Below are positions 16,720 through 28,656 of a DNA stretch of 64,000 nucleotides, in pieces (position 1 is the stretch's first letter; every line of letters starts with the position of its first letter). The position numbers and the translations under genes were made by a program. Location of the stretch: positions 1-64,000 of the IMG/VR virus record IMGVR_UViG_3300020379_000218. The stretch is one strand, 5' to 3'. The stretch comes from a virus. Lineage: Duplodnaviria; Caudoviricetes. The notes under the pieces are model-generated. The model was not told where the DNA came from. It saw nothing but the letters and a program-made list of their open reading frames with translations, and ran no database searches.

Positions 16720-16953
16720 ATGTCAAGTAGATATTTAAAAGTTGAAAGTGAAGTAAATTTAGTTAGAGATACACAATCAGGTGGTATTATTAATACTAAT
16801 TCAAGTGAATTTGATTTGTATATGCAAAGAAGAAAATTAAGAGTATCAAGTGCTGACAAAATGAAAGATGTTTGTAGAGAGATAAATACTTTAAAGGCAG
16901 AAATGTTTGAGATAAAAGAATTATTAAAAAATATGTGTAAAGGTAAAGAATAA
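16720..16953 (+). CDS. Small coiled-coil hypothetical protein of T4-like phages
   Basis: KVE...LVRD..SGGIIN...EINTLKAEMFEIKELL; TAATG coupling to next gene. Confidence 0.75.
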   Translation: MSSRYLKVESEVNLVRDTQSGGIINTNSSEFDLYMQRRKLRVSSADKMKDVCREINTLKAEMFEIKELLKNMCKGKE

Positions 16954-18254
16954 TGGCTGTAAGACAGGTAACAGAAACAGATAGTTTAGATAAATTAAGA
17001 ATAGAGTTTAATGCTCTTGCGGCTAATGACTTTGGAGATATTGCAACTCTATCACCAACTTTATCTGCGACTTCTGTAATCGGTGCTGTTAACGAGATTA
17101 ATAGTATTGCGATTGCCGCTGCCGGTTTCATATTATCAGATGGTGTTAATACACAGGCGGTTGCTTCTGGTAACACTATGTTGGTTACTTCTGGTTTAGG
17201 TGTTAATGCAACGGTATCATCACCAGATACTTTAAATATTGCATTAAATAATAACTTATCAGGTTTAAATACAATTGATGTAGGTACTTCTGCTGAAATA
17301 TCAAACATTACAATTTCAACATCATCAATTATTTCTGCAAGTGGAACAATTGATTTTGGTAACGAACAATTAAATACAACAGGTGGTATAAGTGCTGGTG
17401 GTTCATTAGTTGGTTCTACTTTAACACTTAACGGTGCTTCAATGAAATTTGAAGGTGCAACTGCAAACGCATTTGAAACTACTTTAAGAGTAGATGATCC
17501 ATCACAAGACAATATTATTACACTACCAGACATAAGTGGTACCGTTATTACTTCAGGTGATACAGGTACGGTAACTTCTACAATTTTAGCAAACAATGCT
17601 GTAGGTACATCACAAATTGCTGACTCTTCGGTAACGATTGCAAAACTATCAGGATTTGCAAGTGCAACATTAACGGTTGACACTTTAGTTGCAAATACTA
17701 TTACAGGTACTGCTTCATTAGCAACACAAGTAGACATTACTGGTGAGTCCACTACTAACGCAACAAGATATTTAACTTTTGCTGATAATTCATCTGGTGC
17801 AAATACATTAAAAGCGGATTCAAGTTTATACTATAACCCATCTACAAATATTTTAACAACGACTGCTACACAAGCAAGATATGCTGACTTGGCAGAAAAA
17901 TACAAAGCAGATAAAGAATACGAAGTCGGTACGGTATTATGTATCGGTGGAACTGCTGAGGTAACTATATGTACACAAAATCATTGTTCAAAAGTAGTTG
18001 GTGTTGTATCAGAAAAACCTGCCTTTATTATGAACGGCAGTTTAGAAGGTGTAACCGCTACGGTTGCAATGACAGGAAGAGTACCAGTTAAAGTTTGTGG
18101 TCCTGTAAGAAAAGGCGATATGTTAGTATCTTGTGATAAAGCAGGATGTGCTAGAGCAGAAGCAGAACCAAGACCAGGAACATTAATTGGAAAATCATTA
18201 GTCAATGACGATAATTCAGGAGAGAGAATTATAGAAGCAGTTGTTGGTAAATAG
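16953..18254 (+). CDS. Tail fibre protein with C-terminal intramolecular chaperone (Peptidase G2-like autocleavage domain)
   Basis: Thr/Ser/Gly-rich shaft; ARYADLAEKY...VVGVVS..P...VAMTGRVPVKV...KGDMLVS...IGKSL. Confidence 0.8.
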   Translation: MAVRQVTETDSLDKLRIEFNALAANDFGDIATLSPTLSATSVIGAVNEINSIAIAAAGFILSDGVNTQAVASGNTMLVTSGLGVNATVSSPDTLNIALNNNLSGLNTIDVGTSAEISNITISTSSIISASGTIDFGNEQLNTTGGISAGGSLVGSTLTLNGASMKFEGATANAFETTLRVDDPSQDNIITLPDISGTVITSGDTGTVTSTILANNAVGTSQIADSSVTIAKLSGFASATLTVDTLVANTITGTASLATQVDITGESTTNATRYLTFADNSSGANTLKADSSLYYNPSTNILTTTATQARYADLAEKYKADKEYEVGTVLCIGGTAEVTICTQNHCSKVVGVVSEKPAFIMNGSLEGVTATVAMTGRVPVKVCGPVRKGDMLVSCDKAGCARAEAEPRPGTLIGKSLVNDDNSGERIIEAVVGK

Positions 18255-18263
18255 GAGTATATT

Positions 18264-18743
18264 ATGGACGAACAAACCCAATTGTGGATTTCCAGATTAA
18301 AAGAGGAAATTCAATCACACGACAGATACGAAGCAAGACAATTATTCTACATAGATGACGAAGGACTTGACCGTGAGGTTAAAGAACATATGACTTATGG
18401 AGAATGGTTAAGAGAATTTGAAAGATTCAAAACTATCAAGGTGGAAGGTTTAGAAGATGTGGCCTGGTTAAGAGAAGTTTTAGATGAAGTTGTATTGAAT
18501 ATCACAGGTAAGAAAAGACAAGATATTCATTTATTTGTAAATCAAAAACCAGGTGTTAGTTTTAGAGAACACAAAGATGATAAAGATGTTTACTTATATG
18601 TTGTAAAAGGCAAGAAAAAAGTATCATTGAACGGTGAAGTTAAACCAGTATATGATGACGAAGGTATATTGATTGAACAAGGCGTTAAACACTTTGTAGA
18701 TAATGAAGCAGATACTTGGGGGTTAAGTATCGGAGTTGTATAA
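18264..18743 (+). CDS. Cupin/JmjC (Cupin_4, ROX-like) Fe(II)/2OG oxygenase
   Basis: IHLFVN..GVSFREHKDDKDVYLYVVKGKK...GVKH: HxD...H facial triad; GGAG RBS. Confidence 0.75.
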   Translation: MDEQTQLWISRLKEEIQSHDRYEARQLFYIDDEGLDREVKEHMTYGEWLREFERFKTIKVEGLEDVAWLREVLDEVVLNITGKKRQDIHLFVNQKPGVSFREHKDDKDVYLYVVKGKKKVSLNGEVKPVYDDEGILIEQGVKHFVDNEADTWGLSIGVV

Positions 18744-19774
18744 TGAATTGGATGTTTTATCTTAAAACAACCGAGACCTGCAATCTAAATTGTAAACATT
18801 GTTTTACTTCAGGTATCAATGGTCCTAAAGTCTACTGGAATCCAGATAAGATTATCAAGTGGCTTAAAAATTTCAGAAAATATAATTTTCAAAAACACGA
18901 TACAGCACATTTAGAACTACACGGTGGCGAACCGTTTTTAGTTCCTGTGTCTGAAATGCAATATGTCTATGACGCCACAAAGAATTTGTGGGAACAACAA
19001 TCAATGGGCATAACTTCCAATCTAGTTTTCAAACTTAAACAAGAACATATTGACTTTATCAAAGGTCCATTAGGTAATAGATGTGGAACAAGTTGGGATC
19101 CTAATATAAGATTTGCAAATGAGAAACAAGCAAACTTATGGCGTAAGAATGTAGAGACATTAATCGCCGAAGGTGTCAATATTAAACTTTTTATTTCAGT
19201 AACCAAAGACACAATTAGAATTGAACCTATTGAATTACTAAAATGGGTAAGAGATTTGGGTGTAAAAGAAATGGCACTAGAAAGATTGACTGGAAATGGT
19301 AATGCAAACTTACATCCAGAGATATTTCCTAGTAATATAGAACAAGACAAGTGGTTTTTGAAAATGCACGAACAATCTATTGAGTATAATACAAGAGATT
19401 GGTTTGAAAATGAGTTTTTTGAGACAATTTATTCAAAATTTGAGTATGGTTCAACAAAAGATGGCACATTTTGCCGAGATTGTGAACAAAAACTATTTAC
19501 ACTTAACGCAACAGGCACAATAGGCGGTTGTCCTAACGCAGCTCCCGAGTTTAATTTTGGAACTTTAGATGACCCTCTAGTAGAACTTATAAATAGTCCT
19601 AAGAGATTAGAAAATGTTGCTTGTGAAGTGGCAAGGAACCCTAAATGCTTTGATTGTGAAGTATTTAAATATTGTGGAGGCGACTGCCATCAATTAGAAT
19701 GGCAAGGTAATGTATGTGGTGCTCCTAAATCTCTTATGAAGCACTTAAAGAAACAAAGTGAGGCGAAATGGTAA
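18743..19774 (+). CDS. Radical SAM/SPASM enzyme 1
   Basis: CNLNCKHC (CX3CX2C), HGGEP, C-terminal CRDC...GGCP...CFDC..FKYCGGDC...C; TAATG coupling at 18743. Confidence 0.92.
   Translation: MNWMFYLKTTETCNLNCKHCFTSGINGPKVYWNPDKIIKWLKNFRKYNFQKHDTAHLELHGGEPFLVPVSEMQYVYDATKNLWEQQSMGITSNLVFKLKQEHIDFIKGPLGNRCGTSWDPNIRFANEKQANLWRKNVETLIAEGVNIKLFISVTKDTIRIEPIELLKWVRDLGVKEMALERLTGNGNANLHPEIFPSNIEQDKWFLKMHEQSIEYNTRDWFENEFFETIYSKFEYGSTKDGTFCRDCEQKLFTLNATGTIGGCPNAAPEFNFGTLDDPLVELINSPKRLENVACEVARNPKCFDCEVFKYCGGDCHQLEWQGNVCGAPKSLMKHLKKQSEAKW
19588..19595 (+). promoter_or_regulatory. Candidate internal late promoter upstream of the CHxS-repeat gene
   Basis: Exact TATAAATA inside rSAM1, ~170 nt before ATG 19768; could be chance. 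Confidence 0.35.
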
Positions 19775-20541
19775 CTTTAAATAACCCGATAACGAGTCAA
19801 AACATAGTAGATAGATTTGAGGAACTGGTAACTGATATAGCAGACCACCATATTGTATGGGGTACTGATAATTTACCTGGTCACTCGGCATTTTCTGCTT
19901 CTGATTTTGGTGGAGTTGTTGATGGATTTAATCTTAACTTGATAAATGTATCAGGTTCTTATACTCAAAACGAAACCGTAACCGGTTCTATTACAGGTAC
20001 AATAGGTACCGTAGTTAGTTGGTCTAACAATGTATTAAAAGTTAGAAACATAGTACCAGGTTCTGGTCAAACAGGATTTTTACAAAACGATATTATATCT
20101 GGAACTAATTCTGGTGCTGTAGGTTCTGTAAATACTTTTAACGAAGTAAATGCTGTATCTATCGGTATCACAGGTTCATCTATTGGTAATGCAGGTTCAT
20201 TAATTACTGCAAACCAAATTTATACTACACTTAAAAATGAAATGAACACTTATACTAATATTAAAAACACAAACGCTGTAGTTAATATGACAGGTGCAGG
20301 ACAACAATATTCAGATACACAAATTGCACACTTACCAACATCACAAAGAACAACTTTAAATCCAAGTCAACCTAGTAGTTTACAAGCAGGTCAAACTATT
20401 GATGATAACAACTTGGAAGGTTTCTTTTCAACACTTGCAAACTCTTATAATACTGAAAGAGGAAACACTTATACATTGACAAAAACTATTTGCCACAGCA
20501 GTTGCCACGGTAGTTGCCACGGAAGTAGAGGAAGAAGATAA
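19768..20541 (+). CDS. Virion-structural-like protein with C-terminal Cys/His/Ser repeat; putative rSAM substrate
   Basis: Central GSYTQNETVTGSITGTIGTVVSW module like those in gp7/gp8; ends TICHSSCHGSCHGSRGRR; GAGG RBS. Confidence 0.75.
   Translation: MVTLNNPITSQNIVDRFEELVTDIADHHIVWGTDNLPGHSAFSASDFGGVVDGFNLNLINVSGSYTQNETVTGSITGTIGTVVSWSNNVLKVRNIVPGSGQTGFLQNDIISGTNSGAVGSVNTFNEVNAVSIGITGSSIGNAGSLITANQIYTTLKNEMNTYTNIKNTNAVVNMTGAGQQYSDTQIAHLPTSQRTTLNPSQPSSLQAGQTIDDNNLEGFFSTLANSYNTERGNTYTLTKTICHSSCHGSCHGSRGRR
20491..20526 (+). repeat. 3 x 12-nt tandem repeat encoding (C-H-x-S)3
   Basis: tgccacagcagt tgccacggtagt tgccacggaagt. Confidence 0.95.
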
Positions 20542-21233
20542 TGATTGAATCTATAGTACCAATTGAATTAAAAGACTTAAAAAAATACTTTGAAGACAAA
20601 ACAGAAACTTATCTATTAGACTATGAAAACAGCACATTGAAAGGTGCTCAGTTTTTGACATATTTAAGTAATTTAGATATACCTTGTGATATTAAGAATA
20701 TGGACGAAGAACTAATAAGTGAGTATCTTAAATCTCAAATGTTAGTTAGTATACCTAAATTAGAGAAAGAAATAATTGCTGTATTATTTGAACACAAAGG
20801 GTTGACAAAGACAGATAAATATAAGAGTGTTATAGAAGAGAACAAAGAGATACTTGACAAATGGGCAGGTAAATTAGAAAGTCTACCATTATATAATATG
20901 TCAATTGTCGGTGAAGGTGCTTTCAATGATTTTGTTGAGAGTTATCCTAAAGACGAAACAGAAGATGTAAGAGGTATCAACTTTGTTTCATTATTGAAAC
21001 ACAAAGAATTTTATAGTTATTATCAAATGCCAAAAGAAAACATTGTTAAGAATTATACAAAGTACTTTAAAGAATATATGTTTAAAGGTAAATCTTTATT
21101 TGAATATTGGGCAAACGCAAGTAACCCATTATTCTTAATGACTTGGGCAGTTGCTGAAGGCAAGTTTGATAGTAAAGAATATAACAAAAGGAAAATGGAA
21201 GGTGTACAAAATCTTCCACTAGAGAGTAAATAA
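20541..21233 (+). CDS. Hypothetical protein in rSAM cluster
   Basis: 230-aa ORF, TAATG-coupled to the CHxS gene; no recognisable motif. Confidence 0.8.
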   Translation: MIESIVPIELKDLKKYFEDKTETYLLDYENSTLKGAQFLTYLSNLDIPCDIKNMDEELISEYLKSQMLVSIPKLEKEIIAVLFEHKGLTKTDKYKSVIEENKEILDKWAGKLESLPLYNMSIVGEGAFNDFVESYPKDETEDVRGINFVSLLKHKEFYSYYQMPKENIVKNYTKYFKEYMFKGKSLFEYWANASNPLFLMTWAVAEGKFDSKEYNKRKMEGVQNLPLESK

Positions 21234-21234
21234 T

Positions 21235-22350
21235 ATGCTACACTTATTTAATAAAGTTTATTTAGCGTTTGACGATTCAATAGATTGTCATACTAACAGA
21301 TATGTAATATCAGAAGAAGTTGGTAATGAAATGCACCAAGAACTTCAAAGTACATATAGAGGTAGTTTACTTAATTACGCAAAAAATAAAAACGAAATGC
21401 AAGGTAAGTTTGGTGACTTAACTGGTTTCTTTGAAGATGTAAATACTAAACAGAAATCATTAGGAACTAAAGTTATCATTTACTGCGATAGTCAAGCATA
21501 CCTAGAAATATCTGTAACCTGGTTAAAAACTATGTTGCCGTATGCTGAAAGTGCTGAAATACAAAAGTTTTTAGATATTCATTTACACCACGAAAAAATT
21601 ATTGCAAATACACAACTACAACCTACTCATACTTTAGCACTAACTAAATTAAATTCAGGATTAGGAAATGTAAGTGGTTATTTCAATGTTTTACCAACAC
21701 TTGATATAGATAGAATAAAAGCTCTTAATTTAAATTTCTCAATTGAATTATTGTTAGGCGAATACTTTGCTGGTGCTGATACTCACCAAGCAAATTTATT
21801 GTCTACTTGGCATATGTTCTTAAAAAGATTTTATAAAGAAGTGTTGACAGATAGTAGAGAAGGTGCTGCTCTTAATCTTTTAAATAGTAATCAACAAACT
21901 GCGTTAGGTTATACTAGTGATGATGTTGATTTGAATGCTGATAATCCATTTACAGGAATTACACCATTAGCACCATTTGCTGACGAAGATGTATTCACAC
22001 AAAAACCTACTGCAACGGTCGGTGCTGTGAATATTGCAAACATAGATGGTCTTTCTACAGAAAAACAAACTGCATTGAAAACTTTAGTTAAAGACTTATA
22101 TGATTTCCAGAACTCTCCGGATCCTGATTACTTTATGAACCATTTAGATAAAGCTTGTGATTCAAGTTTATCTGCTGAAGATTTTGATACAATTATTACT
22201 GAAACGGTGAATAGTCCATCTAGTCTATCTTATATCCCTAGATTTGATATTGGAAATATAAACTATACTTTCTTACAATATCTTTTCTCATTGAAAAAAT
22301 CTAACGATACAGACACATTAGGAAAATACAGACTATTCGCAAACTCATAG
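21235..22350 (+). CDS. Hypothetical protein in rSAM cluster
   Basis: 371-aa ORF; KVIIYCD weakly recalls a degenerate protein-phosphatase P-loop. Confidence 0.8.
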   Translation: MLHLFNKVYLAFDDSIDCHTNRYVISEEVGNEMHQELQSTYRGSLLNYAKNKNEMQGKFGDLTGFFEDVNTKQKSLGTKVIIYCDSQAYLEISVTWLKTMLPYAESAEIQKFLDIHLHHEKIIANTQLQPTHTLALTKLNSGLGNVSGYFNVLPTLDIDRIKALNLNFSIELLLGEYFAGADTHQANLLSTWHMFLKRFYKEVLTDSREGAALNLLNSNQQTALGYTSDDVDLNADNPFTGITPLAPFADEDVFTQKPTATVGAVNIANIDGLSTEKQTALKTLVKDLYDFQNSPDPDYFMNHLDKACDSSLSAEDFDTIITETVNSPSSLSYIPRFDIGNINYTFLQYLFSLKKSNDTDTLGKYRLFANS

Positions 22351-22358
22351 GAGTTTAA

Positions 22359-23411
22359 ATGCGAGAGTTTTTAATAGACCCGAAAAGAGACCCAGAGCAA
22401 GAGTACACAATTCACTTATTTGAATTTTGTAATCTGCGTTGTGCTTTCTGTTGGCAAAACCACGAAGATACAATCGGTATTGATAATGTGGTTGATAAAC
22501 TTCCATCTATAGAAAAATTTGTTTCAAAAGAAATGTATATGAAAGTCACCTTTAATATTATGGGTGGCGAAGTCTTTGCACCTGCAATCTATAACAGAAA
22601 TTTAAACGAAGGTTATAAACTTCTATCAAAAGGCATACAAAAGATATGTCAAAGGTACGATAAAGAATTTTCAATCAATTGGGTATCTAACTTGGTTACA
22701 TCACCTGATGGTAATGAACTCATTATGGACTTACTTAAATGGTCCAGAGAAGAAGATATACCTTGTAGACTTACAACAAGTTATGACCCACGAGGTAGAT
22801 TTAATAAAAAAGACTTTGAGATATTTAAATCTAATGTAGAATATTGGGGTGATGAAGTTACCTGTTTCTCTTGTCTACTTACAAAACCTAATATAAACTT
22901 TTATTTAAATGAAGGCGATGAATACTTTGATTATTTGTATAATCAAGGTAAGTACATATATTTTGATTATTATATGCCAGATGAACACGCAAAATATAAT
23001 ATGCCTAGTGATGAACTATTATTAAAGTTTTTTAAACATTGTGTTGACAAATATCCAAATGTTCATCCTGTAAGAGACTGGATATTTAATAAAAAGAATT
23101 ATGCAAGTTGTAGAGTATCTAAACTTGTTTTAGCAGATGGTACATTATGTCAATGTGGTAACCTTGTACAAGATGAGAAATCATTAAGTCAATATAAGTC
23201 GCCCATTAAAAGAAAAGACAATAGTATTATAGAAAACTCTTTCCTAGAGAAATATAATTGTAGTAGTTGTGAATTTTTAGATAGATGTACACTTGGCTGT
23301 TTTATGAACCACGATTATAGATATAAGGAGGAGTTGGATGAATGTGTTTACAAACTTACGCACAGATATATTGAAGATGTACGACTACAGCGAAACTATA
23401 TCGCAAACTAA
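22359..23411 (+). CDS. Radical SAM/SPASM enzyme 2
   Basis: CNLRCAFC, MGGEVF, C-terminal C...DGTLCQC...CSSCEFLDRCTLGC...C; GGAG RBS. Confidence 0.92.
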   Translation: MREFLIDPKRDPEQEYTIHLFEFCNLRCAFCWQNHEDTIGIDNVVDKLPSIEKFVSKEMYMKVTFNIMGGEVFAPAIYNRNLNEGYKLLSKGIQKICQRYDKEFSINWVSNLVTSPDGNELIMDLLKWSREEDIPCRLTTSYDPRGRFNKKDFEIFKSNVEYWGDEVTCFSCLLTKPNINFYLNEGDEYFDYLYNQGKYIYFDYYMPDEHAKYNMPSDELLLKFFKHCVDKYPNVHPVRDWIFNKKNYASCRVSKLVLADGTLCQCGNLVQDEKSLSQYKSPIKRKDNSIIENSFLEKYNCSSCEFLDRCTLGCFMNHDYRYKEELDECVYKLTHRYIEDVRLQRNYIAN

Positions 23412-23967
23412 TTATTTCAATTTTCCTAAACATATAGAAGTACAACTAGATAACTTTCCTGTAGAGAAACCATATCTACCTAGAATAGATGGTAGACAAG
23501 CACATATGTTTTTATGGTTAGGCAAGAAAGAAGAAGATGGTGAACTATATGAGATTGCAAAGAAAACTAAAGGCGAAAGACAATGGGTTCAAAACAAGAC
23601 GCCAGGCACATTTATTAAGGGCGTAGGAATGTTTCATATCTATGACGAGTATGTTATAGTCGGTTCTTTGAAATATGCCGGTTATATGAAGAATAGACCT
23701 GCAAAAGAAAATAGACATTTAATAAGAACTATGTGGTGTGAGACTATAAACATATTTAAAGATAAAGATATATTGTGTCCTTCAGGTACTTACTTTGATT
23801 GGTTACATTTAACAATGAATCAAATGAGAGCACAAAAAGAACCATATCATAGAGAAATAATGTGGCAGTTTGGATTTGATAAAATTGTTGAAGGTAAATT
23901 AAAAGATTATTGGATTAGAAGAAAAGAAAATAAAACTGGACTTGACTGGATAGGAAGATGGACTTAA
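23338..23967 (+). CDS. Hypothetical protein in rSAM cluster (alternative start 23377)
   Basis: 209-aa ORF; AAGGAGGAG before ATG; overlaps both neighbours. Confidence 0.7.
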   Translation: MNVFTNLRTDILKMYDYSETISQTNYFNFPKHIEVQLDNFPVEKPYLPRIDGRQAHMFLWLGKKEEDGELYEIAKKTKGERQWVQNKTPGTFIKGVGMFHIYDEYVIVGSLKYAGYMKNRPAKENRHLIRTMWCETINIFKDKDILCPSGTYFDWLHLTMNQMRAQKEPYHREIMWQFGFDKIVEGKLKDYWIRRKENKTGLDWIGRWT

Positions 23968-25052
23968 TTATAAAACCTACTGAACTTTGTAATTTTAAGT
24001 GTACCTTTTGTTCAAGTACACAACTTACAAATGAGAAAAAGAACTGGTTGAAACACGACCAGATATTTCGTTTTTTAGAAAGATTTCCAGAAACTAAAAC
24101 TATAATAGTAAATGGTGGTGACCCATTGATGATGGCACCTGATTACTACTGGAAGATTATTGAATGGTTAGATAATAAAGGTTATGATACTTCACTTGCA
24201 TTAACAACTAACTTGTGGCCTTTCTATAAGAAACCTAAACTATGGGTTGACTTATTTAATAATGATAGAGTAGGTATTACAACTTCTTTTCAATATGGTG
24301 GTGGTAGATTAAAAGGAGACTATTCAGAATTTACAGAAGAAGACTTTTGGAAGTGTTCAGATACTATGTTAGAGTATTGTGGTTATAGACCAGATTTTAT
24401 ATCTGTTATCACAAGAGAAAATGAACACAACGCAATTAAGAATGTTGAACTTGCAAAAAGAATGTCAGAAGATAAAATGCCAGAAGGTACTTTACATAAC
24501 TTTTGGCGAGAAGAAAAGACAGGCGTAGAATGTAAGTTAAATTATGCAATGGCAAGTGGTGAACAAAAAGAGCCTTTTTTGTTATCAGATATATATGAGA
24601 AGTATGTAGAAATCTATAGGGCAGGTTTAGCACCTTGGGAGTTTAATACTAGACAGATGATGTTAGCAATCAACGATAGTGCTACAAGTTGTCCGTTAAG
24701 TAGAAAATGTGATGAAGGTATTAGATGTTTACAACCAGATGGCGATTACTATAGTTGTGGTGCTTTTGGTGATGATAAAGATAAGTCTATAGATTTTGAA
24801 GAAGAAATGAAAGGTAAGTTTTTTACACCTTTACAAGATAGTTTAGAGTTAACTACAATGAAAAAGAATTGTTATAGTTGCCCTATGTTTAATATATGTA
24901 ATGGTTGTAGAAAGACAATTAAAGATTATAAAGAAGCAGGAGTTGTAGAAAAACATTGTGAGAAAATGAAAAGAATAGGACACGATATTTTAATCGCAAA
25001 TAATAAACCTCACATATCAATGACACCTTATGAGAGAGAATATGCAAGTTAA
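23958..25052 (+). CDS. Radical SAM/SPASM enzyme 3
   Basis: IIKPTELCNFKCTFC, NGGDP, C-terminal CPLSRKC...DGDYYSC...CYSCPMFNICNGC...C. Confidence 0.92.
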   Translation: MDLIIKPTELCNFKCTFCSSTQLTNEKKNWLKHDQIFRFLERFPETKTIIVNGGDPLMMAPDYYWKIIEWLDNKGYDTSLALTTNLWPFYKKPKLWVDLFNNDRVGITTSFQYGGGRLKGDYSEFTEEDFWKCSDTMLEYCGYRPDFISVITRENEHNAIKNVELAKRMSEDKMPEGTLHNFWREEKTGVECKLNYAMASGEQKEPFLLSDIYEKYVEIYRAGLAPWEFNTRQMMLAINDSATSCPLSRKCDEGIRCLQPDGDYYSCGAFGDDKDKSIDFEEEMKGKFFTPLQDSLELTTMKKNCYSCPMFNICNGCRKTIKDYKEAGVVEKHCEKMKRIGHDILIANNKPHISMTPYEREYAS

Positions 25053-25494
25053 ACATAATGTATTAACAAACTTGGAACTTAATCATATGATAAGTGAACT
25101 AGGTAATCTAGGCAAAGATTATCCTATCTATGAAAAGAATGTACATAAGAAATTACCAGATGATTGGAAATGGGCAGATAGTATCTGTAAATTAAATGTA
25201 CCTAATGTAAAACATTGTATCGTTAGGTATGTTATCGCTGTAAATAGTAAAGATGAAGAAAAGAATATTATAGGGTTTCATACAGACAGCGATGTAAAAG
25301 GAGAAAAAACTATTATATTATATTTACAAGGTGATAGTAATAAAGGTGGTCAAATACAAGTTGAAGATAAGACTTATGACTTTAGACAAAACGCAATGTT
25401 TATTATGGACTCTCATTTAGTACATAGGGCAATGCCTTATTGGGGAGAAAAAACAAGACTTGCAATTAAATGGAGATGGACTTGTGAGGGGTGA
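25030..25494 (+). CDS. 2OG-Fe(II) oxygenase (start possibly 25042)
   Basis: FHTDSD...IILYL...GGQ...LVHRA...R: HxD...H...R. Confidence 0.8.
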   Translation: MRENMQVKHNVLTNLELNHMISELGNLGKDYPIYEKNVHKKLPDDWKWADSICKLNVPNVKHCIVRYVIAVNSKDEEKNIIGFHTDSDVKGEKTIILYLQGDSNKGGQIQVEDKTYDFRQNAMFIMDSHLVHRAMPYWGEKTRLAIKWRWTCEG

Positions 25495-26005
25495 ACACGA
25501 TTTATCAAACTTAATAATAAATGGAGTATGGCCACATAAAGACCTTGCACCTTTTAAATTCTTTGAAGGTGTACAGATACCTTTTGTAGAAACGAAAGGA
25601 GAGTATACGGTTGCTGTTCATACTGAAAAGGTTGCACACGCACTTACCACAACCCACAAATATTTGGGTGATAAATATATTAGTAAGTTGTCTAGTAGAT
25701 ATACATTACACGGACGACCTGAAATTGTCAATGGTGTAGATAAAGAAAGTACACTTTGGCACAATGACTTGAAAGAAGGAGCAAACATTGCTATATTAAT
25801 GTACTTTACAAATGCTTGTAATAAGAAACAAGGTGGTTCTTTATCAGTTAGAAATAAAGAAACAAAAGAATTATCTTGTTGGTTATATCCAGGTAAGAAC
25901 GATTTAATATTTTTAAATCATAGTAAAGTATGGGAACATAGAGTTGGTAAATTCAAACTAATTGATAGTGAAAGAATTGTAGGATGTTTTAATTATAATA
26001 TATGA
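25484..26005 (+). CDS. 2OG-Fe(II) oxygenase
   Basis: WHND...ILMYF...GGSL...WEHRV...RIV; GTG start with GGAG RBS. Confidence 0.8.
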   Translation: MRGEHDLSNLIINGVWPHKDLAPFKFFEGVQIPFVETKGEYTVAVHTEKVAHALTTTHKYLGDKYISKLSSRYTLHGRPEIVNGVDKESTLWHNDLKEGANIAILMYFTNACNKKQGGSLSVRNKETKELSCWLYPGKNDLIFLNHSKVWEHRVGKFKLIDSERIVGCFNYNI

Positions 26006-26577
26006 AAAATAAGATATTTCCAAACGGCAGAATACACGCCTCAAAAGAACAAGATTTAGATTACTCAAATGGATACCTTGCGTTATCAGTAAGTCCATTT
26101 GACAATAACTTTGACAATGAAGTTGAGAAAGGTGTATTACCTCATTGCCACGCACTTATTAGAAAAGGTTATCTTCCAATATCAAGTTGCGAAGGACACT
26201 TTACTAAAAAACACCATATGCCATTTTATGTAATGTTAGCAGTTGGTGGTAAAAACAAATTAGATAGAATATACGATATAATAAACAAGACAAAACATAT
26301 ACCTGGTATATCATATAAAATTAAAGAACAACAAGCAAATGTAAGAGGTGAACTATTAGAAAGAGTAAACTATAGTTTAGATAAAGCAGAAGAGTATGCT
26401 GAACTAAACAGATTGTTTATGAGAAATCATTTAGAGTATAATTATCTCTGGATAGGTTTATTTCAAAGTGATAAGAAATTATCAGAAAGAATTTTAAGAA
26501 GACTTATGTTTAGTAGATGTAAGAAAATGTTATTGAATAGTATTGAGGTGTTGAACTATGACGAAGCCGAAGATTAA
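26002..26577 (+). CDS. Hypothetical protein with SSCEGH motif
   Basis: ALIRKGYLPISSCEGH; ATGA coupling. Confidence 0.75.
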   Translation: MKNKIFPNGRIHASKEQDLDYSNGYLALSVSPFDNNFDNEVEKGVLPHCHALIRKGYLPISSCEGHFTKKHHMPFYVMLAVGGKNKLDRIYDIINKTKHIPGISYKIKEQQANVRGELLERVNYSLDKAEEYAELNRLFMRNHLEYNYLWIGLFQSDKKLSERILRRLMFSRCKKMLLNSIEVLNYDEAED

Positions 26578-27505
26578 TCTGTCAATCAATCCATCTTATT
26601 TTTGTAATTTTAGATGTCCTTGGTGTTATCTAAAACCTGAACAATTAGGTGACCAAAAATGTATTGACCATTTTAAATTAAGTGAACTATTAAATGAAGT
26701 ACAAACTCATAGAGATATAGAACACATTGATTTATATGGTGGTGAGATAGGCGTATTAAAAGAAGGTGCATTAGAAAAAATCACAAATGCAATTAAGATA
26801 TACTATAAAGAAAAGATTAACATAAACACTAACTTATCTATGATGAGAGAAGAGTTTATGAATCCTGATTATTTTATTAGTGTTAGTTATGATATGGAGA
26901 GTAGAGAAGAAAACGAAAAAGTATGGAACAATATGATGAAACTGCCTGTTCCTTTTTCTGTTTTGATACTTGCAAATGAAAAAGTATTAAAAACATCAAC
27001 TCAACATATATGGTCTAAAATGATACACTTGACTAAAGACAATCAAAACTTTCAAGGATTTGAAATTAAACCTTATAGTACTAATCAGGCAAACCAACAT
27101 CCTATCACTCACGCACATTTTGAAGACTTTATATTAAGAATGGTAGAGACTAAACCTAACCAATGTCCTGTACATTTTATTAATGAAGACAATATTAAAG
27201 ACTCTCTTAATAGTAGTTATAACGCATACAGCGATGACCATTTATATATTACACCTAATGGTAAGTTTGCTGTATTAGATTTTGATAAAGACGATAATGA
27301 ATATTTTTTAGAACTTGATAGTTTTGCTGATTACGAAGTATGGTGTCAGAAAGAAAAAGAACAAAACATTTCCGATATATGTCGTAAGTGTGAATATCTA
27401 GGTAGATGTCTAACTGAACATTACAGATATGTTAAAAGTCTAAAAGATGGTTGCAATGGGTATAGGTATCTGTTGGATACTTATTCGTTTAAATATGGCA
27501 AATAG
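26558..27505 (+). CDS. Radical SAM enzyme 4 with reduced SPASM-like domain
   Basis: CNFRCPWC, YGGEIG, C-terminal CRKCEYLGRCLTEH...GC; GAGG RBS. Confidence 0.9.
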   Translation: MTKPKINLSINPSYFCNFRCPWCYLKPEQLGDQKCIDHFKLSELLNEVQTHRDIEHIDLYGGEIGVLKEGALEKITNAIKIYYKEKININTNLSMMREEFMNPDYFISVSYDMESREENEKVWNNMMKLPVPFSVLILANEKVLKTSTQHIWSKMIHLTKDNQNFQGFEIKPYSTNQANQHPITHAHFEDFILRMVETKPNQCPVHFINEDNIKDSLNSSYNAYSDDHLYITPNGKFAVLDFDKDDNEYFLELDSFADYEVWCQKEKEQNISDICRKCEYLGRCLTEHYRYVKSLKDGCNGYRYLLDTYSFKYGK

Positions 27506-28283
27506 AGCATTTTGTATCGGTAACGGAACAAGTAGAAAAGGTTTTAAATTTTCTACTATCAAAGGACGAGGTGTTATATTAGGTTGTAATAATCTCTATA
27601 AAGATTTTGCACCTGATATTCTAGTCGCAATGAAACATCCTGTTATGCACAAAATTTATCAATCAGGTTATGGTTATACTGCTAGATGTTATTTTAGAGA
27701 TTGGGCACCTAACACACACGAAAGATATGAGACTATGTTAAATAGTTTCTTTCCTGGGTATAGACATTTACGAGCAATCAGACAATCAGGTCTACTTAAA
27801 GAAAATCAACGAGTAGGTTCTGATAGATTTTGTTTACACGGATATGATGATGAAGGACAAAGAAAAGTTAATGTAAGTTGGTTGACAGATGACCTAGTAA
27901 AAAATTTTACAGACATACAGAAAACACCTGAACAAACAGAATGGGCAACAGGTCCTGCAAGTGGTTATGTTGCTTGTAAAGAGATAGCAGAATTAAAAGA
28001 AGTGTATCTAATTGGACACGACATATATAGTATGTCAAATAAATTTAATAACATATATGCCGGACAAGAATTTTATAAACAAGATACACACCCTAGTCAA
28101 TACTATTTACAAAACTGGATATTTCAATGGCGTCAACTCTTCAAGTGGTACCATTGGGTTAAGTTTTATAAAGTAAATAGAAAGGCTATGTTAAATGTCA
28201 ATATTCCGGAGTGGAATGAATGTAGAAATTTGGAGTATATAAGTTATGAAAGAATGGAAGCTCAAACAAGAAGTATATCATAG
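27495..28283 (+). CDS. Nucleotide-sugar-transferase-like protein (Maf/DUF115/GT29-type fold)
   Basis: AFCIGNGTSR...GCNNLYKDFAPDILVA...WATG...VYLIGHD. Confidence 0.6.
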   Translation: MANRAFCIGNGTSRKGFKFSTIKGRGVILGCNNLYKDFAPDILVAMKHPVMHKIYQSGYGYTARCYFRDWAPNTHERYETMLNSFFPGYRHLRAIRQSGLLKENQRVGSDRFCLHGYDDEGQRKVNVSWLTDDLVKNFTDIQKTPEQTEWATGPASGYVACKEIAELKEVYLIGHDIYSMSNKFNNIYAGQEFYKQDTHPSQYYLQNWIFQWRQLFKWYHWVKFYKVNRKAMLNVNIPEWNECRNLEYISYERMEAQTRSIS

Positions 28284-28656
28284 ATTAAATCCTACTCATA
28301 AAGATACATTGAACGATAAGGAGATATATCTTATATGGGAAGATAATGATATAATTCTAAATGCAAAAAGACATTGGGTAGAACAGGTAGATAGATTTAT
28401 CTATCCTGCAAAGAGTTATTGCGTAGCGATATGTTATGCAAAGTGGATAGAGAGAGATTATGGAGATAACTTTTACGACTTGTTAAACGATAAAGACTTG
28501 TTGTATGGTAATGACCCTTACTTTGAAATATACAATGGGAAGAAACACATTTATGACCCAATCATAGAAGCGTTTCCTAAAGATGAACAATTGGGAATGA
28601 TACCAGATATTAGAGACTATTATGAAAAAGAAATACGATATGACGGTGGAATCTAA
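28246..28656 (+). CDS. Hypothetical protein ending the rSAM cluster
   Basis: 136-aa ORF overlapping previous gene; YPAKSYCVAICYA. Confidence 0.75.
   Translation: MKEWKLKQEVYHRLNPTHKDTLNDKEIYLIWEDNDIILNAKRHWVEQVDRFIYPAKSYCVAICYAKWIERDYGDNFYDLLNDKDLLYGNDPYFEIYNGKKHIYDPIIEAFPKDEQLGMIPDIRDYYEKEIRYDGGI

Follow-up and report, generated by a model that had tools for sequence, protein, structure and literature searches.

We identify, in a marine T4-like myovirus, a 257-residue protein that is probably a late virion protein whose C-terminal tail is covalently matured by the cassette of radical SAM (rSAM) genes around it, and that possibly caps the tip of a tail fibre as gp38 does in T-even phages. 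What we infer is the action of the enzymes on the tail, the bond type, where on the virion the protein sits and what it does. Phage rSAM clusters among structural genes have been left unexplained or ascribed to DNA repair or metabolism (PMC12390700, PMC8541153, PMC5332604), and in the literature that we searched, from which subscription papers are mostly absent, we found no description of this tail-protein family, of the cassette or of the maturation of the tail. One widespread phage rSAM cluster now gains a specific candidate substrate, and published data place a homologue of that substrate in virion preparations. If the proposal is right, post-translational tailoring of the particle is added to phage biology; rSAM enzymes are dedicated to tailoring a virion protein that takes part in attachment to Gram-negative cells; four uncharacterised rSAM enzymes get a defined 16-residue substrate; the crosslink chemistry on Cys, His and Ser is probably new; and attachment devices of phages and Bdellovibrio are linked.

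The window, by which we mean the whole 64,000-nt stretch analysed, is part of an incomplete 109.6-kb virus record. Among cultured phages, the source virus is closest to Pelagibacter phages Mosig and HTVC008M and to Methylophilales phage Melnitz. The gene for the 257-aa protein sits in the baseplate and fibre region, where it is preceded by gp6, gp7, gp9, gp8, DUF4815/VrlC and a fibre gene, and the co-oriented block around it includes a cupin, four rSAM genes and two 2OG-Fe(II) oxygenases (Table 1). The fibre carries a C-terminal RYADLAE domain, which we take to be a self-cleaving chaperone of peptidase G2 type; neither Pfam nor PDB gave a tie between this domain and peptidase G2. Elsewhere in the window, positions 187-489 read, judging from the sequence, as a NifU-like Fe-S scaffold protein with a CxxC motif, which could feed clusters to the four rSAM enzymes.

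Table 1. Features of the cassette and its surroundings (positions in the window; counts refer to viral loci)
Feature	Position	Strand	Remark
Tail fibre with C-terminal RYADLAE domain; candidate docking partner	16953..18254	+	phrog_19602 tail fiber; upstream in 60/74 loci
Cupin/JmjC-like protein	18264..18743	+	upstream in 66/74 loci
Radical SAM/SPASM enzyme 1 (rSAM1); CxxxCxHC and C-terminal Cys clusters	18743..19774	+	directly upstream in 74/74 loci
T4-type late-promoter consensus TATAAATA	19588..19595	+	in rSAM1 3' end, 173 nt before start codon
Virion-type protein, 257 aa: ~180-aa body, inserted beta-barrel, (CHxS)3-RGRR tail	19768..20541	+	
Inserted small beta-barrel, residues 54-126	19927..20145	+	only in 255-260-aa subclade
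Tail C242-R257, putative modification site	20491..20541	+	invariant C/H/C/H/C/H, R254, R256, R257 (114 aligned members)
230-aa protein, phrog_20767; candidate maturation scaffold	20541..21233	+	downstream in 59/59 loci
371-aa protein, no assigned function	21235..22350	+	53/59 loci
Radical SAM/SPASM enzyme 2	22359..23411	+	59/59 loci
Radical SAM/SPASM enzyme 3	23958..25052	+	59/59 loci
Two 2OG-Fe(II)-type oxygenase genes, variable	25030..26005	+	8/59 and 26/59 loci
Radical SAM enzyme 4; Cys cluster at C-terminus	26558..27505	+	59/59 loci
136-aa protein, phrog_20737; last gene of cassette	28246..28656	+	55/59 loci

The ORF (19768-20541, + strand) ends in CHSS-CHGS-CHGS-RGRR, where its only three cysteines lie. 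The first-pass annotation had singled out this period-4 ending and the 12-nt tandem repeat encoding it; the former is confirmed by the ORF translation and the latter by TRF (20490-20526, period 12, 3.1 copies, 88% matches). The 70 distinct tails compared use synonymous codons freely (TGT/TGC, CAT/CAC, both AGY and TCN for Ser) yet always have three copies, so the (CHxS)3 repeat is kept at the protein level; on this evidence we reject DNA slippage as what maintains it. The tail is likewise kept across homologues. An alignment of 114 members, hand-picked as intact and with bodies 23-75% identical to the query, shows no variation at nine of the 16 tail positions, and three CH units occur in 140 of 145 distant hits that were not selected in this way. 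A Ser stands two residues after the His in 371 of 430 units, and an Asn in 46. This tail is also found at the end of a 587-609-aa protein whose body has no detectable similarity to ours and which lies inside the same cassette, and where paralogues occur in tandem pairs the tail ends both members. In each of two such loci (L150:4271-5985 and L182:4477-5990), a single cassette is shared by a tandem pair whose bodies have diverged and whose tails are identical. The tail is predicted with low confidence (pLDDT 53-64), and its end is helical in one model.

Linkage between the tail and the rSAM genes is borne out in both directions of search. We found 80 viral loci through the tail and scored rSAM1 in the 74, and the downstream genes in the 59, that had enough sequence: rSAM1 precedes the tail-protein gene in 74/74, and 59/59 have rSAM2-4 and the 230-aa gene, 53/59 the 371-aa gene and 55/59 the 136-aa gene. 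As these loci had been found via the tail, we ran the reverse search from the 230-aa protein, and the tail was present in 80 of 80 loci. Besides Bdellovibrio-like genomes, the cassette occurs in phages of T4-like, Rak2-like and phiKZ-like type. It is carried by cultured jumbo phages from two groups other than the T4-like one (Atu_ph07 and Phosso; RSL2, RSF1, the FLC phages (FLC6) and pPa_SNUABM_DT01), and by 8 of 301 genomes of the Bdellovibrio-like class, some of them with a B12-binding rSAM.

The family to which the protein belongs comprises 783 clusters at 50% identity (E ≤ 0.001), with a core made of a ~180-aa body and the near-invariant tail. The predicted structure of the 257-aa protein has a pLDDT of 89.9; a model of the body freed of its insert reaches 91 and has three helices with a strand after each, followed by a low-confidence tail. 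The body can be read as three weak helix-strand pseudo-repeats, of which the second and third score 18.8 against a null maximum of 9.2 and the first and second 12.7 against 7.4; the score for the first and third was not above the null. No Pfam, NCBIfam or PADLOC family was found for the protein, and a PDB sequence search gave no match, with a homeodomain row at E 0.026 judged to be chance. A fold search of the insert-free body against 48,161 chains returned no solved match (best Z 4.0), which is no proof of a new fold. Among predicted structures, Foldseek matched the body only to uncharacterised phage proteins, and three BFVD entries of 504-660 aa from Myoviridae sp. ctijX18 (A0A8S5USJ7, A0A8S5USJ8, A0A8S5USV2) have the body fold in common (TM 0.53-0.57). 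The ESM Atlas held no usable match for the body or for the 230-aa protein. With tblastn, the 257-aa protein found no relative in cultured phages, and homologues there were reached via neighbouring genes instead. Similarity to the protein encoded behind the chaperone fibre of phage MIJ3 fell short of significance (5.0 bits against a shuffle maximum of 10).

Residues ~55-125 had been said to resemble a module of gp7, gp8 and the DUF4815 protein, and this resemblance is above chance. An HMM of residues 54-126 matches the gp7-like protein (window 4854, residues 518-576) at iE 8.7e-8, and profile-profile comparison gives probabilities of 95% (gp7), 92% (gp8) and 92-94% (two DUF4815 copies); shuffled columns score at most 15-24, against 34-38 for gp8 and DUF4815, gp7 was compared without a null, and the regions were picked by eye. 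By fold, the barrel is closest to 9f4a, a baseplate chain of 1031 residues from phage KP1 (Z 7.5, rmsd 2.3, 71 residues aligned), which lends modest support of its own to the identity of the predicted barrel. The insert is thus homologous to T4-like baseplate proteins (gp7, gp8, DUF4815/VrlC) and has the same small barrel fold. However, only this 73-residue insert of one subclade matches the baseplate wedge proteins and the rest is unrelated to them; Pfam and PHROG baseplate models had no hit on the 257-aa protein. The further suggestion that the baseplate-like module is the carrier of the tail did not survive. Homologues split into a 255-260-aa clade with the barrel and a ~190-aa majority without it, and we dismiss the module as carrier since its HMM matches the former clade only: it is an optional insert, and the conserved carrier is a different fold of ~180 aa.

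Insertions in the family fall at three loops. Glycine-rich domains (PF21722, Gly_rich_2) are fused at three positions, which are N-terminal, internal or at the barrel site; in the last case the domain is joined to the N-terminal half, and the C-terminal half is then an ORF of its own. In L066:9052-10420 (and also in L022-L024), the gene is split at the barrel site into a 308-aa N-terminal half with glycine-rich domain and a 140-aa ORF that carries the tail.

The SPASM-type model TIGR04085 scores above its cut-off for rSAM1 only, and C-terminal Cys clusters are found in the rSAMs. Their best sub-threshold matches are mostly peptide maturases (DynA, PapB, TIGR04083). In all four enzymes the cluster motif starts at residue 11-24, which leaves no room for an N-terminal RRE and counts against the maturation that we propose. 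Covalent modification of the tail is the simplest reading, because SPASM clusters and weak maturase matches go together with an invariant, flexible and portable tail next door. A precedent is HxsA, which is matured on its HxS repeat by rSAM enzymes (PMC13128918). In the mechanism that we propose, the folded ~180-aa body would be the carrier and would take variable inserts (the barrel here, glycine-rich domains elsewhere), and the flexible 16-residue tail would be the site that the cassette recognises and modifies. The four rSAM/SPASM enzymes would be the modifiers, with the 230- and 136-aa proteins, and optionally oxygenases or a B12-dependent methylase, as helpers. They would most likely put covalent crosslinks on the Cys, His and Ser of the tail before assembly, giving a rigid, basic and probably metal-binding tip. 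Taken at its broadest, the cassette may be a portable RiPP-type pathway, shared by at least three unrelated phage groups and predatory Bdellovibrio-like bacteria, whose product is a multiply crosslinked, possibly metal-binding Cys-His cage on a fibre-tip protein or else a covalent polymer; we offer this tentatively, as possible rather than probable.

The same residues could serve without any covalent change. The tail would then be a direct Cys3/His3 ligand for a metal (Zn, Fe or Cu), a haem-like cofactor or an Fe-S cluster (it holds two overlapping Cx3CH), and the enzymes would make or load the cofactor or use another substrate. The invariance of Cys and His at i, i+4 and i+8, the helical tail end in one model and the NifU-like protein all suit such a ligand, which we nonetheless find unlikely in both its parts: the near-invariant Ser and the R-x-R-R would be superfluous for metal ligation, nothing resembling a haem lyase was identified among the cassette genes, and SPASM-type Cys clusters and best matches that are mostly maturases point to peptide modification.

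Among known systems, the closest in operation is HXS (HxsA/B/C/D, TIGR03976-03979), in which maturation has been shown as +8 Da on SHRSS (PMC13128918). Both pair a full-size protein bearing tandem His-Xaa-Ser and basic residues with rSAM enzymes and small accessory proteins. Here, unlike in HXS, a Cys opens each repeat, there are three repeats at the C-terminus and there are four rSAM/SPASM enzymes; moreover, the protein is phage-encoded and late, has a virion-associated homologue and lacks a signal peptide or peptidoglycan-binding domain. The HxsA model TIGR03979 did not match the window protein. The 114 members had 27 NCBIfam matches at E ≤ 0.1, all at chance level, and TIGR03979 is absent from the 25 of these that were listed; the HxsB and HxsC cut-offs were missed (32.6 vs 370 bits and 30.9 vs 267.9 bits). 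With ranthipeptides, SCIFF and PapA-PapB (CxxxD/E, Cys-rich cores), the tail shares a Cys at every fourth residue of a C-terminal core and rSAM/SPASM partners with weak similarity to PapB (36 bits against a cut-off of 340). In those systems the substrate is a short leader-core peptide; here it is a folded protein of 180-600 aa, the enzymes could not accommodate an N-terminal RRE, the tail has no acidic acceptors and a thioether link is hypothetical. No ranthipeptide or SCIFF precursor model is among the listed NCBIfam matches, and the protein is folded, with 177-257 aa. What had been called a hybrid ranthipeptide/HxS core is thus a resemblance, with no family model matching; by its sequence, the cassette appears to work most like HXS and to resemble ranthipeptide cores as a member of neither.

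The likeness to HXS admits a different function, superinfection exclusion or DNA binding, in which the basic HxS tail, once matured, would attach to DNA within the particle or in the periplasm. HxS repeats with Arg and rSAM partners are found in HXS itself (PMC13128918), and chromosomal copies exist in Bdellovibrio-like bacteria. We consider this function very improbable, as HxsA, HxsB, HxsC and HxsD had no match at cut-off, PADLOC gave no relevant hit, no signal peptide or peptidoglycan-binding domain is evident, and late expression and presence in virions are unfit for exclusion.

Timing and location were assessed through the promoter and a published virion proteome. The window has 14 TATAAATA sites, every one on the coding strand, and 12 of them lie within 60 nt of a start. 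Of 56 distinct loci, 50 have the consensus, at several distances, within the 400 nt upstream of the tail-protein gene, compared with 12 of 993 background windows (1.2%); the 56 include related loci that are non-independent. Gp170 of Atu_ph07 is a true homologue of the protein (tail-less HMM E 2e-11; Foldseek E 1.2e-5, TM 0.55), with a computed mass of 31.89 kDa that equals the entry in the published table. It was detected in the Atu_ph07 virion proteome by 8 peptides covering 35%, whereas cassette products gp164-169, gp171 and gp172, the 230-aa homologue among them, are absent from the table (PMC6102473 Table S5). Two of the four peptide sets that fit this coverage include the C-terminal peptide. 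The evidence comes from one phage and one experiment. The earlier view of a virion-type protein is upheld by the dedicated late-promoter consensus and by the presence of this homologue in a PEG-purified Atu_ph07 stock. Presence of the body in virions also weighs against a RiPP precursor with a large folded leader, in which the tail would be modified, cut off and act free as a metallophore, inhibitor or toxin. Such a precursor would have its core at the C-terminus, more than one tailoring enzyme and a tail portable between bodies, as is the case here. However, the body folds stably, its insertion loops are hypervariable and it bears domains of adhesin type; among the cassette genes we identified neither a conserved protease nor an exporter, and we hold this reading to be improbable.

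In the gel of the same study, gp170 is spread across slices 1-9 (PMC6102473 Table S5). Its peak is in slice 1, at the top and far above its mass, alone among the 34 proteins of 25-40 kDa with at least 3 peptides, 20 of which peak in slices 7-8. With a PEG-purified sample and no reductant listed for the loading buffer (PMC6102473), the slow migration could be due to plain disulfides or to co-pelleting. Among the proteins detected in the virions is also the upstream fibre gp176 (PMC6102473 Table S5). This 66-kDa fibre (L081:3611-5434) peaks in slice 4 with proteins of 50-57 kDa, a position consistent with loss of its C-terminal domain.

As to the place on the particle, we tentatively suggest, by analogy, that the protein caps a trimeric tail fibre and works like gp38 on gp37. 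Three features favour a gp38-like cap: the pseudo-repeat of three helices, the fusions to glycine-rich domains and a gene position behind fibre genes that recurs in three settings. RYADLAE fibres are found in 60 of 74 viral loci and also in Atu_ph07 and Phosso; in phiKZ-like phages, probable fibre genes, by our own reading, adjoin the cassette; and in two Bdellovibrio loci, prepilin-S74 fibre genes flank it. The latter genes (L087:4670-8412 and L091:17708-18754) encode short proteins of prepilin type that end in a peptidase S74 chaperone. The link to fibres is one-way only, 21 of 36 similar chaperone fibres having no cassette behind them, and about 14 of the 74 loci and three Bdellovibrio loci have no such fibre nearby. 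Gp38 is a monomer whose three-helix bundle caps the fibre trimer and which has a polyglycine domain (PMC6851490). In T-even phages (phage S16, PDB 6F45), as here, the gene lies downstream of a fibre gene, in our case after the cupin and rSAM1, and the product is one chain with three helices, variable inserts and, in some members, glycine-rich domains. Unlike gp38, the 257-aa protein lacks the three conserved apex Trp. The fold of gp38 combines a helical attachment domain, a beta-helix and a polyglycine sandwich; gp38 is not among the rows of the fold search (48,161 chains, best Z 4.0), nor did it appear in the PDB sequence search. Gp38 itself has no modifying enzymes and no Cys-His tail.

With the same enzymes and the same substrate, the bonds could instead run between chains and produce a covalent filament or coat on the virion, or a weld to the fibre. 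Such inter-chain bonding is compatible with the maturation that we propose and differs from it in place and stoichiometry. A crosslinked polymer suits the gel result at least as well as a fibre cap does, given the spread of gp170 over slices 1-9 with its peak at the gel top; the late-promoter consensus of its own is as expected for a higher-copy protein, and the linkage to fibres is incomplete. Against it, rSAM/SPASM maturases, to our knowledge, crosslink within one chain, the fibre gp176 peaks in slice 4 and not in slice 1, and disulfides in an unreduced gel yield the same pattern; we regard bonding between chains as somewhat unlikely.

In L029, L067 and L086, the cassette runs in the opposite orientation to the structural genes, and the RYADLAE fibre gene is at its far end on the other strand. 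Behind RYADLAE fibres of PA5oct-like phages and two viral contigs (L191:6462-7682, L233, L238) stands a protein family with the motif G-x-x-I-x-A-x-x-x-N-x-L; it has no tail or rSAMs, and its similarity to the tail-protein family is not significant. In jumbo phages phiRP12 (ORF75-80) and phiRP31 (ORF71-76), rSAM clusters behind YomR-like genes gave no match to the cassette queries (PMC5468394 supplement), and Aeromonas phage 332-Vera has eight rSAM genes among its structural genes (PMC12390700). Further substrate families may be present in rSAM clusters of other jumbo phages.

Pelagibacter phage Mosig, the closest cultured relative, lacks the cassette and has another protein and another enzyme set in the slot; the cassette is therefore accessory and not essential to the phage type. 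The Mosig slot (L190:9001-18561) holds a fibre without RYADLAE domain and a 306-aa protein that is three-fold repeated by eye, a repeat that BLAST did not confirm. Its enzymes are an epimerase, a nitroreductase, a methyltransferase, a carbamoyltransferase, a MoaA-like rSAM and an aminotransferase, and the slot looks like a swappable fibre-tailoring locus.
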